Under the pieces are notes generated by a model. That model was not told where the DNA came from, made no database searches, and was given only the letters and a program-made list of their open reading frames with translations. Positions 1,415-60,527 of a stretch of 64,000 nt of DNA are shown in pieces. The stretch covers positions 1 through 64,000 of the IMG/VR virus record IMGVR_UViG_3300028874_000010, one strand, 5' to 3'. Source of the stretch: a virus. Numbering within the stretch: position 1 is the first letter of the stretch; each line of letters opens with the position of its first letter. The position numbers and the translations under genes are program-made.

Positions 1415-1597
1415 ATGGAAGAAGTTAAAGAAATAAAGCCAACTGAATGGGAAAATATGTCATTTGATCAATTGATGGCCCAGAAAACAATCATGTTGGA
1501 TAGATATGAATTTTTAATTCGGCGAGGCTATGAACAACAATCTAAATTTTTGATAGAGGGAATCACTAAATTAGACTCCCTCCTATTTGGTACTTAA
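1415..1597 (+). CDS. hypothetical protein
   Basis: AAGGA SD upstream; fills intergenic gap. Confidence 0.55.
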   Translation: MEEVKEIKPTEWENMSFDQLMAQKTIMLDRYEFLIRRGYEQQSKFLIEGITKLDSLLFGT

Positions 1598-2328
1598 TTA
1601 GTAGCTTCAACAATCGTAGGCTGATCTTCCGGAGTTCCTTCGGAAGTAACAACTTTACCTTTGGTCTTTTTTTTGGTAACTGGTTTTACCTTTGGTTCTG
1701 GTAATTCTGGAATTACCACTTCCGCATCTTCGAGATCCTCATCAAGGTCTTCTTCATCGACCCACGGATCACGAATCTCATCGCAAATACCGTACTTCAA
1801 ACAATCTTCTGGTGTTAACCAAGTATCTGAGGGCCGAAGTAAAATAGTACGAATCTGTTTTTCAGTCATCTTAGTATGACGCAAGAAATGCTGAATGAAT
1901 TGCTTTTCCAAAGTATCATGGAATTTACGAGCCGCAATTAGTTCATGATGTTTTCCTGCTAACACTGATGAAAATTGATGTGTCATCACAGCAGTTCTAG
2001 GAGTCATAATTCGTAAGCCTTTTGTCCCGGCCACGAAAATAGAAACTGCCATTGAAGCAATACATCCCATAGCTACAGTCGAAATATTGACTCGACTTGC
2101 TTCCATAACATCAATGATCGCCCATCCATCTGTCACTGAACCACCGCCAGAATTAATAAACATGGTTAGAGTATCATCTGGGTCACAAATCAAATTAGCC
2201 TTTAAAAGATAATCACAACACCGTAATGCAGATTCTTCACATATTTCTTCAAAGAGCATGTACGCACCAAGGTTAGTCAGTGATACATTGTCAAGTAGAA
2301 TAAGTTCTTGTGGACTTGGTTGAGTCAT
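1594..2328 (-). CDS. clpP: ClpP-family ATP-dependent protease proteolytic subunit
   Basis: INSGGGSV, IASMA (Ser), MTHQ (His), SDTWLTPEDC (Asp); acidic then basic C-terminal tail. Confidence 0.9.
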   Translation of the reverse strand: MTQPSPQELILLDNVSLTNLGAYMLFEEICEESALRCCDYLLKANLICDPDDTLTMFINSGGGSVTDGWAIIDVMEASRVNISTVAMGCIASMAVSIFVAGTKGLRIMTPRTAVMTHQFSSVLAGKHHELIAARKFHDTLEKQFIQHFLRHTKMTEKQIRTILLRPSDTWLTPEDCLKYGICDEIRDPWVDEEDLDEDLEDAEVVIPELPEPKVKPVTKKKTKGKVVTSEGTPEDQPTIVEATN

Positions 2329-2492: not shown

Positions 2493-3050
2493 TTATTTTT
2501 CTAAATAATCTTTAAGATATACTCTTTCAAATCTGTATCCGGGTTCTACCGCAACCATGAACAATGTTTTTGTATATTCGCCAGTCTGAAATTTCAATCT
2601 TATTTCACCTAGAGGTCCATCTTCCTGAGATAATGAAAATGGATTGCCTGCCATATCAGCATTCAATCTATCGGTTTGCTTCTTAAGAATCTTATGAGCC
2701 TCATCCATTAATTGCTTCTTGCAATCATTCTTAATGCTCTTTGAATAAGCACCACCAATCTTAATAGATGGATACACCGAACTCTTATTCCCAAATCTTC
2801 CAACATTCGTTTCTTTATCAGTAAATTCGACGTTATCAAAATATTTTGAATCAGAAAGATCATCAAAATCAGAAATATCTGCTGGAGAAAATGTATTGAC
2901 TATCTTAACCCAAGATTTTTCTAACTCGGATCGAATTTTCTTTGCAACGTCAACATGCTCATTTTGCTCGTAATCAAAGAAACGGAGAGTATGCTTAGCT
3001 CTTGCTGCTTCCGTTAAAACATAAGACTTAAAGGTTGGTTTCATATTCAT
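2493..3050 (-). CDS. hypothetical protein, possible capsid-internal protein
   Basis: N-terminal MKPTFKSYVLTE resembles T4 capsid-targeting peptide; late-promoter-like GATAAATA at 3066-3073. Confidence 0.55.
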   Translation of the reverse strand: MNMKPTFKSYVLTEAARAKHTLRFFDYEQNEHVDVAKKIRSELEKSWVKIVNTFSPADISDFDDLSDSKYFDNVEFTDKETNVGRFGNKSSVYPSIKIGGAYSKSIKNDCKKQLMDEAHKILKKQTDRLNADMAGNPFSLSQEDGPLGEIRLKFQTGEYTKTLFMVAVEPGYRFERVYLKDYLEK

Positions 3051-3161: not shown

Positions 3162-3863
3162 ATGAAAGCTCTTCCATACGTTTACAAATTAGTACATAAA
3201 GAAACAGGCGAATTCTACATAGGTTTTAGATGTGCAAACAAAGTACCAGCAAATGAGGATTTGGGAATTAAATATTTTACTTCTTCAAAATTGGTTAAGA
3301 AAACATTTGAAAATTTTGAATGTTTTGTTTTAGGAGAATTTGAAGATAAAGATGCCGCATATACTTTTGAACAAAATCTTATCAAGGAGTGTTTTTCTAA
3401 TCCATTAATCCTAAACAAACATTGGCAAGATACTAAAACATATTCTATGCTAGGATTTAAGAGGCCAGATCTTGGAAAATTAAATTCTGAAATAAAAAGA
3501 AAACCAAAAGAATATAGAAATTATGATTGTGCTCAATGTGCTACGCCTTTGTCAAAATTAGAATTTATTCATCATAAGCCAAAGGAGCATTATTATTGCA
3601 ATGCTAAATGCCGAAATGAATTTAATAGAGGCCCATCAAAAAAAGGAATTAAGCTTCCGCATTTGTGGGGTAGGGCAGCTTGGAATAAAGGTTTGACTAA
3701 TCCAACTGCAGCAGAAAACGCAAGGAGAGGCGCAGAAAAACAACGCGAATTGGTAACCGGAAGAAAGAGACATTATATTTCAGAGACCGAATGGACCTGG
3801 AAATGTCAAGACAAAGATGGATGGTACATACGCCAAAACGGGGAACAAGTCCCCGTTTTGTGA
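3162..3863 (+). CDS. free-standing GIY-YIG homing endonuclease (Seg-like)
   Basis: PYVY...FYIG, YFTSS, conserved E and LN; C-terminal Cys cluster and AWNKG NUMOD-type motif; opposite strand to neighbours. Confidence 0.85.
   Translation: MKALPYVYKLVHKETGEFYIGFRCANKVPANEDLGIKYFTSSKLVKKTFENFECFVLGEFEDKDAAYTFEQNLIKECFSNPLILNKHWQDTKTYSMLGFKRPDLGKLNSEIKRKPKEYRNYDCAQCATPLSKLEFIHHKPKEHYYCNAKCRNEFNRGPSKKGIKLPHLWGRAAWNKGLTNPTAAENARRGAEKQRELVTGRKRHYISETEWTWKCQDKDGWYIRQNGEQVPVL
3834..3860 (-). terminator. intrinsic terminator downstream of tmRNA, overlapping the 3' end of the GIY-YIG ORF
   Basis: CAAAACGGGG-N7-CCCCGTTTTG, perfect 10-bp inverted repeat. Confidence 0.65.
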
Positions 3864-4210
3864 TCATTCTGTTTCTTGGCTGATCAGCCTCATGGGGATC
3901 ATGCCGCTAGGCGAGTCTCACCAAAGTAAGCATCATTTGCATTTGCTTTGTTTGCTTCATTTACGTCGATCGCCTGACGTGTTGTCTGCATCAATACTAA
4001 TCACCCAATCAAAACCTTGGCGAGCCCATCAGAAGAACCCAAACTCATATCGGTCGTTAGCTTGGTTTATTGCAATACCCGATCCATCTTAGCAAGACTT
4101 ACGTTATTGCACCAGTGAATATTCTAGAAATACTCACCTTAGGTTCTTCTGGTGGACTCGATGGGACTCGAACCCATGTCTTGAGCACCTTTCTATCAGC
4201 TTCATACAAC
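3861..4210 (-). ncRNA. ssrA: tmRNA, circularly permuted (two-piece) gene: acceptor piece ~4210-4150, intervening segment 4149-4028, coding piece 4027-~3861
   Basis: GAC-ATGGG-TTCGAGT-CCCAT-CGAGTCC-ACCA ends at 4150. GGGCTCG starting at 4027 pairs with it, including G3.U70. Tag frame 3940-3899 reads ANDAYFGETRLAA*. Confidence 0.92.
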
Positions 4211-4305
4211 AATAATAATGTTGACAGATTCTAATCGCGTATCTGTCTTGATTCACAAAGATATCGCGATTTAAGCTCTTTGTGAATCGCACTGCCAACA
4301 AATGA

Positions 4306-4334
4306 ATTATACACAGCCCTGAGGAAATGTATAC
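4306..4334 (-). promoter_or_regulatory. early/sigma70-type promoter for tmRNA
   Basis: GTATAC-N17-TATAAT; cf. GTTTAC-N17/18-TATAAT-like at 9206-9235, 52037-52065, 58692-58721. Confidence 0.65.
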
Positions 4335-38811: not shown

Positions 38812-40695
38812 CTAGTCGAAGATGAAATCTTCCCATTGTTTAAGGAATGGATATGATTGTTTTGAAGTGCCAAGCTTGATATACTCAACAGACAGTTCAA
38901 TGAATTCCTTCTGCGTTGCAGAATTTGTTTTGATAAGCATGTTTACAACATGACCAAAATATGTAGAATTATCACTGAGCAGTTTTTTAGCTCTTGCTAA
39001 TTCACGAGTTATGATATTGGTGATAGCAATATCCGATTCTTGGATTGATGTCACCCAATTAATAGGGAGTCCAGCCGATCCGTCAATTAAAACCGGAACA
39101 TTATTTTCAAATCCAAATCGTCTAACATAATTGCTGGATAGATTTGTTGCTTGGACAATATCCGATTGTGCCCCACTTGTTATATTTTCTTTGCCATAGA
39201 TTAATTCTTCCGCAGCTCGACCAGCTAACATAATACAAATAGAATCAAGGCATTGTAATTTAGTTTCTGCTTCATCTGAAGGCGCATCAAGAATATACCC
39301 ACCTTTAAATTGAGATGTATTAACCTTTACTTCGAAAGGTGCCGATTTAGTCAATAGAGAATATATCACAGCATGTCCACTTTCATGAACAGCAACTAGA
39401 GCTTTGAAATCAGCTGAAGTTTTTTTCTTGTTCTCATTCATTTCCAATTCGACTGGAAATGATGCCGAAGAATTAAAACCATTAACTACTATATGTTTTT
39501 CATCATCATGCATGAAAAGAGATAAACTCTTTTCATCATTCTCTATAGCCCAAAATGTTGCGTTAACCAGCAGATTACTGAAAATTTTGTGGATAGATGA
39601 AAATACTGGCCGAGTTCCTTGTGTCGGGAAGACCGCATTGTTATAAATCTCATCTAATATTTTTTGATCTAATGTAAAGGATATATCCGACACTTTAGAC
39701 ATTTCATCAGTGTACTTAAGACATGTTGCTTTGATCAGCTTTTGATACGACGATTTACTCATAGACGGGTAGATAATATGATTATTGCCCATGCGAGAAA
39801 TCTGTTCTGGACGAAACCGTTCTTCTAGATTTGCCTTGATTTCATTGGATGTAATATTTTTGGTAACTTCATGATAATAATCAGCATCAGTATCAGAATC
39901 ATCTGTACTTGTCGCCCCAATAAAAGCAGTATCCAGATTACCAGAAATAAAGATAACTAATTTAGAATAATCAATTTCCCAAGTAGTTCGTGAGTCACAA
40001 AATTCATGGAACACTTTTGCTATTTTTGAGGTAGACCAAGACAGAATTTCACTAATTGGTTCCTGTAGGCGCAGAAGTTTCTTTAGATTTTTTGCTTCAT
40101 ACGGATATAGCGATGTTTTTTTCTTTGGTTTGCTATCCTCATCTTCATCAGACTCATTAAGAAATTTGCCATCATCATAATCTTGCTGTGCAATCAGCAT
40201 TTCAATTTCATCAAAAACTGATGAATCAGATGAAAACTTACCATCACTTAAAAGAGTCCAGACATCTTGGTATCGTTCAACCGCAACATCTGCATCATTA
40301 TCATCAACAGTCCGGTAACGTTGGATTTCATCTAACAACAAAATACCTGGTGTGCCTTCATCAATAGATGATTGCAAAAGAACAGATGAAATCGTAGTAG
40401 GTCCATATGCTTTAATAGACCCACCATCCATTTGTATTTCTACAAACTTGGTATTAAAATCCAGTAGTGATACGATACGCCGGACTAATTGGGTTTTGCC
40501 AACACCAGTCATACCCCAAAGATTAATGATCACTGGGCGAGTAATAATTTCTGGGAAAATATACCAAGCTGAAAGAGAGTCAACAATCTTTTCAATGATT
40601 TCATCCAAACCAAAAAATTCTGTTTTCAGCTGAATTTTAACTCGGTCTAAAACTTCACGCTTTGCGGTGATTAAACTTTTATCTAACGGCATCAA
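38812..40695 (-). CDS. AAA+ ATPase fused to peptidase M41 (soluble FtsH-like)
   Basis: GMTGVGKT, LLLDE, HESGH, LAGRAAE, GAQSD. Confidence 0.85.
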   Translation of the reverse strand: MMPLDKSLITAKREVLDRVKIQLKTEFFGLDEIIEKIVDSLSAWYIFPEIITRPVIINLWGMTGVGKTQLVRRIVSLLDFNTKFVEIQMDGGSIKAYGPTTISSVLLQSSIDEGTPGILLLDEIQRYRTVDDNDADVAVERYQDVWTLLSDGKFSSDSSVFDEIEMLIAQQDYDDGKFLNESDEDEDSKPKKKTSLYPYEAKNLKKLLRLQEPISEILSWSTSKIAKVFHEFCDSRTTWEIDYSKLVIFISGNLDTAFIGATSTDDSDTDADYYHEVTKNITSNEIKANLEERFRPEQISRMGNNHIIYPSMSKSSYQKLIKATCLKYTDEMSKVSDISFTLDQKILDEIYNNAVFPTQGTRPVFSSIHKIFSNLLVNATFWAIENDEKSLSLFMHDDEKHIVVNGFNSSASFPVELEMNENKKKTSADFKALVAVHESGHAVIYSLLTKSAPFEVKVNTSQFKGGYILDAPSDEAETKLQCLDSICIMLAGRAAEELIYGKENITSGAQSDIVQATNLSSNYVRRFGFENNVPVLIDGSAGLPINWVTSIQESDIAITNIITRELARAKKLLSDNSTYFGHVVNMLIKTNSATQKEFIELSVEYIKLGTSKQSYPFLKQWEDFIFD

Positions 40696-59393: not shown

Positions 59394-59428
59394 AAAAAAA
59401 AGGAGACTCATTGCGAGTCTCCTTTTTT
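59394..59428. terminator. bidirectional terminator
   Basis: AAAAAAGGAGACTC-attgc-GAGTCTCCTTTTTT between convergent genes. Confidence 0.85.
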
Positions 59429-60527
59429 ATAGTGCATTAATTCTGGCATTAAAGATTAAATCTTTAATTTTTGTTTTATCTTCTGTTGATAACGCAATCT
59501 CGGCAACATCGACATTCAAAATCTTATCAATATCACTATAAATTAATTCATGCGGCATCAGCCCAACTCCTTTAACATGTTCGCCGATATATCGACAAGC
59601 AGTTAGAACAACTTTGAATCTTTCAGGTCTCCTGAATAAATCAACTCTATTAAACAATTGGACCCGTTCTCTCTTACTTAATATTTGATATTTAGCAAGA
59701 GCCCCGCATTCGTTATTTACCAATGTAGAGACTTGTTCACAATCAACTGAGATAGTCCAACGTTTGTAATCTTCTTTATTTTTAAATCCATTTGCTATGA
59801 TAGCAAATCGAACTTCAAGCGGAGCATTATTCTGAGCTGCTTCATTTAATGAGTGTAGCCCACTGTCACGAAGCCACTGACCTGTTGTACGAGTTCCGCC
59901 CCCAAACCATTCATTTAAATGATGATTAGCGCCAACATACGACAGTATTACAAACATCGCTGAAGGTCTTGCTTCCATCAGACCTTTCTTAAATTCCATC
60001 CAAACTCGTTCCGGGGTTAATGACTTGAATTCGCCAGAATCTACTATTTGACGCATAAGTTCTATAGTATCTTCGTGGATAGTGAACTCGGTATATCTTG
60101 CAGCAAATCTGGCGATTCTGAGAACCCGAACCGGATCTTCAGCAAAGGCTTCTGATGTGTGTCGAAGAATTTTATTCTTTAAATCTTCTTGGCCACCATA
60201 CGGGTCAATGACGTTATTGTTTTCATCCATCGCCATCGAGTTGATTGTTAAGTCGCGCCGAAAAAGATCTTGCGCTAATGTAACAGTCGGATCAAAGTCA
60301 ACTTTAAACCCGTTGTACCCAGGAGAAACCTTACGTTCATTTCTGGCTAATGCATATTCTTCACCAGTGATTGGATGGAGGAAGACCGGAAAGTCTGCAC
60401 CAACTTGCTGGAAATTAAGTTCCAACATGGCTTCAGTTGTGGCGCCAGTTACCACATAATCTCGATCTCTGGATTCTATTCCGAGCAGCCGATCCCTAAC
60501 TGCGCCACCAACTAAATATGTTTTCAT
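59427..60527 (-). CDS. cca: CCA-adding tRNA nucleotidyltransferase
   Basis: [31 protein letters not shown]. Confidence 0.95.

Follow-up and report, generated by a model that had tools for sequence, protein, structure and literature searches.

The question raised by this locus is whether a phage genome carries a working transfer-messenger RNA (tmRNA) in two pieces, and what the stretch that separates the two pieces in the gene represents. The window analysed here is the first 64 kb (64,000 nucleotides, nt) of the 112,368-bp IMG/VR virus record IMGVR_UViG_3300028874_000010, for which CheckV gives a completeness of 32%. On its minus strand the acceptor piece of the tmRNA comes first, followed by a 122-nt intervening segment (the spacer) and then by the coding piece; the CCA end lies at 4150 and the first nucleotide of the coding piece (G1) at 4027. 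The locus is probably a working-looking, phage-encoded, circularly permuted tmRNA of the betaproteobacterial type belonging to a peat jumbo phage, in which the interior of the spacer is a dispensable slot filling.

A circularly permuted tmRNA of the betaproteobacterial type

The permuted gene had been predicted from the letters of the window by a sequence-only reading, which proposed ARAGORN and Rfam models as a check. ARAGORN calls a tmRNA* at 3808-4242 on the minus strand. The Rfam model for permuted tmRNA (RF04321) gives 108.1 bits against a cut-off of 47, and that for beta_tmRNA (RF01850) gives 97.3 bits (E 2.7e-28, cut-off 84). The match detected by ARAGORN and the two Rfam models far exceeds chance. 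The cyanobacterial model (RF01851, 22 bits) and the alphaproteobacterial model (RF01849, 25.6 bits) both remain under their cut-offs for this gene, and the tmRNA is therefore of the betaproteobacterial type.

Every coordinate that the sequence-only reading had given for a permuted tmRNA on this strand was confirmed in the sequence. The parts of the two mature pieces are as follows.

4150..4211, minus strand: acceptor piece, minimal extent (from the coordinates, ARAGORN and the Rfam alignment)
4211-4183, minus strand: 5' strands of helix 2 (P2) in the acceptor piece
4177-4161, minus strand: T-arm ATGGG-TTCGAGT-CCCAT
4160-4154, minus strand: 3' acceptor strand CGAGTCC
4153, minus strand: discriminator A73
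4152-4150, minus strand: encoded CCA
3834..4027, minus strand: coding piece, from the 5' acceptor strand through the terminator hairpin
4027-4021, minus strand: 5' acceptor strand GGGCTCG
4016-4009, minus strand: D-loop-like GGUUUUGA (a stretch also written GGTTTTGA)
4008-4002 and 3984-3980, minus strand: 3' strands of P2
3980-3963, minus strand: stem region of pseudoknot PK1
3899..3940, minus strand: tag frame GCA...UGA encoding ANDAYFGETRLAA and a stop, as placed by the Rfam alignments and the tags of relatives
3888-3860, minus strand: hairpin 3' of the tag frame
3835..3859, minus strand: terminator-like hairpin AAAACGGGGA-CUUG-UUCCCCGUUUU, aligning with the last hairpin of the Rfam beta model

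The two pieces are joined by two helices, both of which had been proposed beforehand and were verified. The acceptor halves GGGCTCG and CGAGTCC pair at all seven positions, including G3.U70, and this 7-bp stem together with A73 and the CCA end makes up the alanine identity elements. P2 links the pieces a second time through the strand pairs TGCTCAA/TTGGGTG and GTTGT/ACAAC. The Rfam alignments also contain a T-arm with a loop of the GGUUCGAnUCC type, and the modelled PK1 stem ACGUC/GACGU is found at its listed position; the models cover one pseudoknot stem only. The terminator-like hairpin is followed by only 4 U and is hence unlisted by a strict terminator scan. When the 392-nt precursor is folded to minimum free energy, the T-arm, acceptor stem, closing helix (see below) and terminator are all retained.

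The tag frame reads GCA AAT GAT ... GCG GCA TGA, with the resume codon GCA at 3940-3938 and the stop UGA at 3901-3899. ARAGORN prints a longer tag frame, EANKANANDAYFGETRLAA, the additional part of which stems from its start heuristic. The resume codon at GCA 3940-3938 is favoured because the Rfam alignments and the relatives' tags ANDAYFGEERLAA and ANDAYFGDERLAA agree on it, and the frame originally read at this position is thereby backed. The resulting tag of 13 residues begins with AND and ends with LAA, a form found in many relatives; its last four residues are RLAA.

The intervening segment and its closing helix

The intervening segment contains the following elements.

4028..4149, minus strand: intervening segment, 122 nt, which on the model of known two-piece tmRNAs would be missing from the mature RNA
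4138..4151, minus strand: 5' strand of the closing (processing) helix, starting at C75 of CCA
4030..4043, minus strand: 3' strand of the closing helix, separated from G1 by the 2-nt leader AU (4029-4028)
4115..4137, minus strand: interior hairpin 1, GUGAGUAUUUC / GAAUAUUCAC
4071..4111, minus strand: interior hairpin 2, a domain closed by the 7 bp of UGCAAUA ... UAUUGCA, with an inner stem

The closing helix, CAGAAGAACC/GGTTCTTCTG, extends to 14 contiguous pairs between 4151-4138 and 4043-4030. The same register, with C75 paired to position -3, recurs in 62 of the 66 unique genes of the wider family described below. The median helix length there is 12 bp for viral genes and 10 bp for cellular ones, and several compensatory pair types are seen at positions 6-14. 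Throughout the family, a leader of 2 nt, usually AU, lies between the helix and G1. The closing helix is the only conserved element of the spacer and is a precursor feature of the whole family. Its most plausible role is to offer both mature ends to the enzymes that process them.

The segment had been described as structured, a description that needs qualifying. The closing helix and both inner hairpins exist, and the whole 122-nt segment folds with a z-score of -3.5. Without the closing helix the interior has a z-score of -1.4, and 22 of 200 shuffles fold equally well; the two inner hairpins are weak evidence for a selected structure.

A second proposal, that the excised segment might be a stable RNA in its own right, is unsupported here. 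The interior (approximately 4044-4137, about 94 nt) is a singleton, as it has no related interior among the other viral genes. Exact-pattern scans with its interior hairpin, from which very close records may have been missing, found no match in viral or metagenome contigs, the spacer is not repeated within its own record, and no copy of the interior occurs in 2.17 Mb of collected loci. At E < 3 the spacer has no Rfam match and no riboswitch was found, and a known riboswitch or RNA family in this position was rejected. A nested open reading frame (ORF) was likewise rejected, none being plausible within the 122 nt, as was a cis-acting role of the spacer by pairing with the mature pieces, since such pairing does not go beyond chance. 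A signal scan of the spacer found no promoter or terminator of its own. Since relatives get by with 13-28 nt, the interior would not be required for tmRNA function, and as one part of the explanation preferred here it is probably a lineage-specific filling of a hypervariable, exchangeable slot.

Relatives of the gene and exchange of spacer interiors

A junction pattern (T-loop ... TCCACCAGAAG) was used to search IMG/VR contigs. More than 118 contigs matched, and about 100 of these carry an ARAGORN tmRNA*. All nine genes from a stricter pattern scan score 130-152 bits on beta_tmRNA, and six of seven further representatives pass its 84-bit cut-off. Homologous genes lie deep inside phage genomes of 155-170 kb that are 86-100% complete. 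Exact patterns for the window's acceptor arm had no match in viral or metagenome contigs, and a coding-piece pattern scan gave no match. Among cellular genome contigs, the junction pattern yielded 2 permuted genes among the 120 matches listed, most of which are one-piece tmRNA or tRNA ends. At class level, a search with RF01850 proved too broad and placed 1 of 151 genomes above the cut-off.

In a tree of the mature parts, which is based on a short alignment and has no support values and is thus used descriptively, the Rhodocyclaceae-type genes of cellular genomes group as a single clade within the viral genes. The window gene sits on a long branch, with at most about 71% identity to any other gene. 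Spacer lengths in 98 viral genes range from 28 to 122 nt with modes at 87 and 74, the window having the longest; those of the cellular Rhodocyclaceae-type genes are plain hairpins of 24-42 nt, often without an encoded CCA. The viral spacers are thus expanded relative to the cellular ones.

The interiors of the viral spacers fall into at least 17 unrelated sequence types. Segment-by-segment comparison of three pairs of genes (L016/L085, L020/L055 and L065/L096) gave spacers that are 99-100% identical between mature parts of 64-73% identity and flanks at noise level. In the first of these pairs the spacers are 72 nt long (10913-10984 in L016), the identity starts and stops almost exactly at the mature ends, and the acceptor stems differ by a compensatory change. 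The converse is also seen: 15 of 27 pairs with mature parts of 90-95% identity carry unrelated interiors, the tag ANDAFYGEDRLAA is found with spacers of 28, 80, 84 and 87 nt, and three near-identical tmRNAs (L081, L094 and L099) have unrelated inserts or none. Pairs sharing a spacer type have a mean identity of 95% in the interior, 85% in the acceptor piece, 82% in the first 85 nt of the coding piece and 71% in the tag region, figures that are biased upward as the pairs were chosen on interior identity. The interiors evolve independently of the tmRNA, and the spacer behaves as an exchangeable slot.

These interchangeable interiors, or cassettes, occur as one copy per phage genome, and none was found outside tmRNA genes in the 2.17 Mb of loci. 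The 50 unique interiors of at least 30 nt are not unusually structured (mean z -0.7), and the viral spacer types that were tested have no match to an Rfam family. The simplest mechanism for their spread is that co-infecting phages recombine their tmRNA genes across the conserved flanking sequences CCACCAGAAG and CTTCTGATGGG. Two other origins were considered and rejected. Copying of the viral cassettes from host ssrA is unsupported, the 87-nt type being absent from 401 sampled cellular genomes of the order, a sample that does not amount to proof of absence. A multicopy mobile element does not agree with a single copy per genome, with the lack of cassettes outside the tmRNA genes of these loci, or with a window spacer that is unrepeated in its record.

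Some individual spacers and genes have features of their own. The commonest viral spacer type (87 nt, L004:6403-6489) contains AGGGTGAT-ATG-TAA, a Shine-Dalgarno-like motif with a start-stop pair; in the window, TAAGGTGAG occupies the corresponding position and the start codon is missing. The spacer of L017 includes a second T-arm-like sequence, GGGTTCGACACCC. One cellular genome (G002) holds two beta-type tmRNA genes. The first (L250) is cellular in style, with a CCT end and a 31-nt spacer; the other (L247), on a contig of 1.9 kb (C126), is viral in style, with an encoded CCA and a GAAG...CTTCTGAT closing helix, and could have entered the genome bin as DNA of a phage or prophage.

Genomic context and assembly

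The record comes from IMG/VR, and matches to phage families in PHROG and Pfam flank the tmRNA on both sides. They include a ClpP/prohead-type protease, thymidylate synthase, topoisomerase II subunits, NAMPT and a CCA-adding enzyme, along with many PHROG matches without known function. The GC content of 35-37% is uniform on both sides of the tmRNA, and the record has 15 tRNA genes. The nearest relatives of a YeaG/PrkA-like protein are found in the 344-kb Ralstonia jumbo phage RsoM2USA and in uncultured phages of 630-640 kb. Two of the neighbours are listed here.

1594..2328, minus strand: gene for a ClpP-family protease, 54% identical to RsoM2USA ClpP and syntenic with the tmRNA
2493..3050, minus strand: conserved neighbour gene of unknown function, 37% identity, directly downstream of the tmRNA in RsoM2USA also

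A gene upstream of the window tmRNA is 39% identical to its RsoM2USA counterpart, and all three matched genes flank the tmRNA of that phage too. Because these flanking genes are shared, the tmRNA locus is one that has been inherited within a jumbo-phage lineage, beside ClpP. The phage genes on both sides, the uniform GC content and the synteny together uphold the earlier claim that the gene is phage-encoded. It had also been noted that a misassembly rearranging a one-piece ssrA would overturn the prediction; contigs from three other peat-metagenome runs (X4, X6 and X7) each run from one piece through the spacer into the other and show 0-1 differences, and the permuted order is thus present in three independent assemblies.

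Further genes of the window touch on tagging and RNA ends. An FtsH-like protein with AAA and peptidase M41 domains is encoded at 38812-40695 on the minus strand, and a CCA-adding-type nucleotidyltransferase at 59427-60527, also on the minus strand. With ClpP, whose gene is 1.5 kb away from the tmRNA, these proteins look like a phage-borne set of partners for tagging and tRNA-end repair. A homing-endonuclease-like ORF at 3162-3863 on the plus strand (PHROG 314, E 1e-7; no Pfam match) converges on the tmRNA, its final 30 nt or so overlapping the terminator hairpin. It has no RsoM2USA counterpart at the same position and looks like an insertion beside the tmRNA gene.

Upstream region

Two promoter elements can be proposed upstream of the acceptor piece.

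4306..4333, minus strand: best sigma-70-like promoter match, TATACA-16-TATAAT, 10/12, from a consensus scan only
4228..4233, minus strand: possible alternative -10 box TAGAAT, aligning with TATAAT in the promoter-like 5' part of Rfam beta_tmRNA

The consensus scan returned 4 upstream sites, compared with 2.2 expected in shuffles, and 4306..4333 is a candidate transcription start region. If this promoter were used, a leader of about 90 nt (the 4219-4300 region) would lie ahead of helix P2. Whether the leader at 4219-4300 on the minus strand is part of the mature acceptor piece would depend on which promoter is used.

Processing, function and alternative explanations

Permuted tmRNA precursors are processed by RNase P and tRNase Z, and a two-piece tmRNA is functional in Caulobacter (PMC3985003). 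On the model of such established two-piece tmRNAs (PMC3985003; PMC11915505), a single precursor would be transcribed from the window gene. The acceptor stem, prolonged by the 14-bp closing helix from C75, would hold the ends of the tRNA-like domain together. RNase P would cleave 5' of G1 (4027), and the 3' end at A76 (4150) would arise from an endonuclease and trimming, with the phage CCA-adding enzyme able to repair it. With the intervening segment cut out, the pieces would stay paired through the acceptor stem and P2. Host alanyl-tRNA synthetase (AlaRS) would then charge the RNA with alanine via G3.U70, and host SmpB would deliver the two-piece RNA to stalled ribosomes. These would be rescued, and the nascent chains would be tagged for Clp- or FtsH-type proteolysis.

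Several observations weigh against a working tmRNA with a dispensable spacer interior. The window gene is the most divergent member found, with 97 bits where most viral genes reach 130-160 and cellular ones 160-305, and its D-loop-like motif is GGUUUUGAU instead of GGUUUCGAC. The contig from run X7 has a plus-strand C>T at 4027, that is G1->A, which would break the first acceptor pair; as a single contig at a depth of about 4, it may be erroneous or reflect variation between strains. Neither SmpB nor ClpX was found in the 112-kb fragment, which is about a third of the genome, and SmpB is presumably supplied by the host. Finally, among relatives that share a spacer type, conservation is higher in the interior than in the mature RNA, which argues that interiors are not always neutral filler. 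The low Rfam score (the lowest among the relatives found), the divergent motif and the possible G1->A variant would also suit an RNA that does not work in ribosome rescue and instead titrates host SmpB or AlaRS as a decoy or inhibitor, or is a decaying relic, and an inhibitor of tmRNA consisting of the tRNA-like domain only has been proposed for mycobacteriophage DS6A (PMC4131195; PMC11915505). Such a reading is very improbable, however, given an intact tag frame with the canonical AND... start and ...LAA end common to many relatives, the intact G3.U70, A73, CCA and T-loop, the compensatory changes that keep acceptor stems across the family, and the conserved synteny with a cultured jumbo phage. 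An origin from a bacterial ssrA at a prophage border, from a misclassified contig or from a misassembled one-piece gene is hardly credible and is largely refuted. The gene does lie only about 4 kb from the record end, ssrA is a frequent prophage integration site (PMC4383910), and G002 has its second, viral-looking copy on a 1.9-kb contig; but the window gene has phage genes and uniform GC on both sides, both of its flanks are syntenic with RsoM2USA, the three assemblies agree on the permuted order, and its architecture is shared by about 100 viral contigs, in some of which the gene lies deep in a near-complete phage genome.

The remaining alternative makes the spacer cargo. The window interior would be an accessory RNA in an exchangeable slot, freed by the cleavages that also mature the tmRNA, and would have its own function, either as a stable small RNA or as a cis element that tunes processing. 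It draws on the independent evolution of the relatives' interiors, seen both in identical spacers between diverged mature parts and in unrelated inserts between similar ones, on the greater length of the viral spacers and on cassettes that are single-copy in each genome and confined to this slot. The 10-11-bp hairpin and 7-bp-closed domain of the window spacer, and the published case of a tRNA-Ala gene inside such a spacer (PMC11915505), point in the same direction. Against this, the window interior shows no sign of selection because no homologue was found in the searched data, and its structure is at chance level both here and over the 50 interiors. It also lacks an Rfam match, any promoter, terminator or ORF of its own, and pairing with the tmRNA beyond chance, and recombination across the conserved flanks could spread neutral inserts. 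Cargo of this kind is therefore unlikely in the window. That the slot serves for accessory cargo spread horizontally between unrelated phages, with the window filling released as a by-product small RNA with its own function, is a distinctly doubtful proposition. Were the slot to carry cargo, the disposable part of a stable-RNA precursor would be a vehicle for phage accessory RNAs. If the cassettes are functional, the maturation of tmRNA would also serve phages to deliver small RNAs or small genes; functionless cassettes would be a clean natural marker of recombination between co-infecting phages.

With a working tmRNA and a dispensable interior as the preferred explanation, the gene as such adds little that is new, being a divergent peat jumbo-phage example of known phage two-piece tmRNAs. 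The tmRNA does travel with ClpP in a lineage that includes the cultured RsoM2USA, where the association is testable. The more useful outcome lies at the level of the family, with its expanded spacer, its covarying closing helix and unrelated cassettes that move independently of the tmRNA.

Comparison with known systems

The sequence-only reading implied that a phage two-piece tmRNA would be novel, and here the literature had preceded it. A two-piece tmRNA has been published for the OM43 phage Melnitz (Buchholz et al., 2022; PMC9004378), and the same study lists 53 ARAGORN-permuted tmRNAs in 18,146 phage genomes, with marine or aquatic samples as the source of 50 of these tmRNAs, and notes that the type of a phage tmRNA need not match that of its host's own tmRNA. 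The 2025 tmRNA database contains 79 unique phage tmRNAs (PMC11915505). The betaproteobacterial two-piece tmRNA goes back to Sharkady and Williams (2004), as relayed in PMC3985003 and PMC9004378. Much longer spacers with cargo are known as well, in permuted genes whose intervening sequence holds a tRNA-Ala gene, or a repetitive element that brings the gene to 1152 bp (PMC11915505). The window gene is like these in that its intervening sequence tolerates a long insertion; its insert is short, with an interior of about 94 nt, and has no recognizable gene, repeat or family.

The betaproteobacterial genes matched by RF01850 share with the window gene the permuted order, the tRNA-like domain, P2, the PK1 region, the hairpins after the tag, a tag of the form AND....LAA and a closing helix from C75 to position -3. 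The window gene differs from the cellular ones in being phage-encoded and in its score of 97 bits compared with 160-305. It encodes CCA, where many cellular genes have CCT, CCC or CCG; its spacer is 122 nt long, in contrast to plain hairpins of 24-42 nt; and its tag of 13 residues ends in RLAA and not ALAA.

In bacterial 23S rRNA, intervening sequences occur sporadically as hypervariable extensions at the tip of a conserved helix of this stable RNA; RNase III excises them without religation, leaving a fragmented RNA that is still functional. Their resemblance to the spacers described here is an analogy only, as the RNA is a different one and the fragmentation of tmRNA stems from the permutation of the gene, not from the insert.

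Melnitz and the pelagimyophages, all aquatic myophages, resemble the source of the window in being large lytic phages with a complete permuted ssrA near nucleotide-metabolism genes. In Melnitz the gene belongs to the alphaproteobacterial type, and a glutamine riboswitch is described as its regulator, whereas the window gene is of the beta type, comes from peat, has no riboswitch that could be found and lies beside ClpP in a jumbo-phage lineage.

Closer counterparts exist in two cultured phages. RsoM2USA has an unannotated permuted beta-type tmRNA in an intergenic gap (MG752970.1, approximately 331,600-331,930; L304:1318-1726), with 96.7 bits on RF04321, a spacer of about 13 nt and a tag, ANDSRYAVAA, that was read by eye and differs from the ARAGORN tag; the paper describing the phage makes no mention of a tmRNA (PMC8504454). 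The gene neighbourhood, including ClpP, is common to this phage and the window, and the spacers are unlike. The Synechococcus phage BUCT-ZZ01, a cultured freshwater cyanophage, has an unannotated beta-type permuted tmRNA within a tRNA cluster (ON615601.1, approximately 116.95-117.25 kb; L003:2790-3190; RF04321 111.9 bits), with the tag ANDETFSMALAA, a spacer of 111 nt and an irregular closing helix. A control genome of Synechococcus elongatus gave no permuted tmRNA above the cut-off. A tRNA that ARAGORN assigns the anticodon CTA (amber-reading) adjoins the tmRNA of BUCT-ZZ01. Its spacer is long like that of the window (111 versus 122 nt), and the two sequences are unrelated. Both cultured phages thus have tmRNA genes missing from their annotation, and it is in these phages that the predictions made here are testable.

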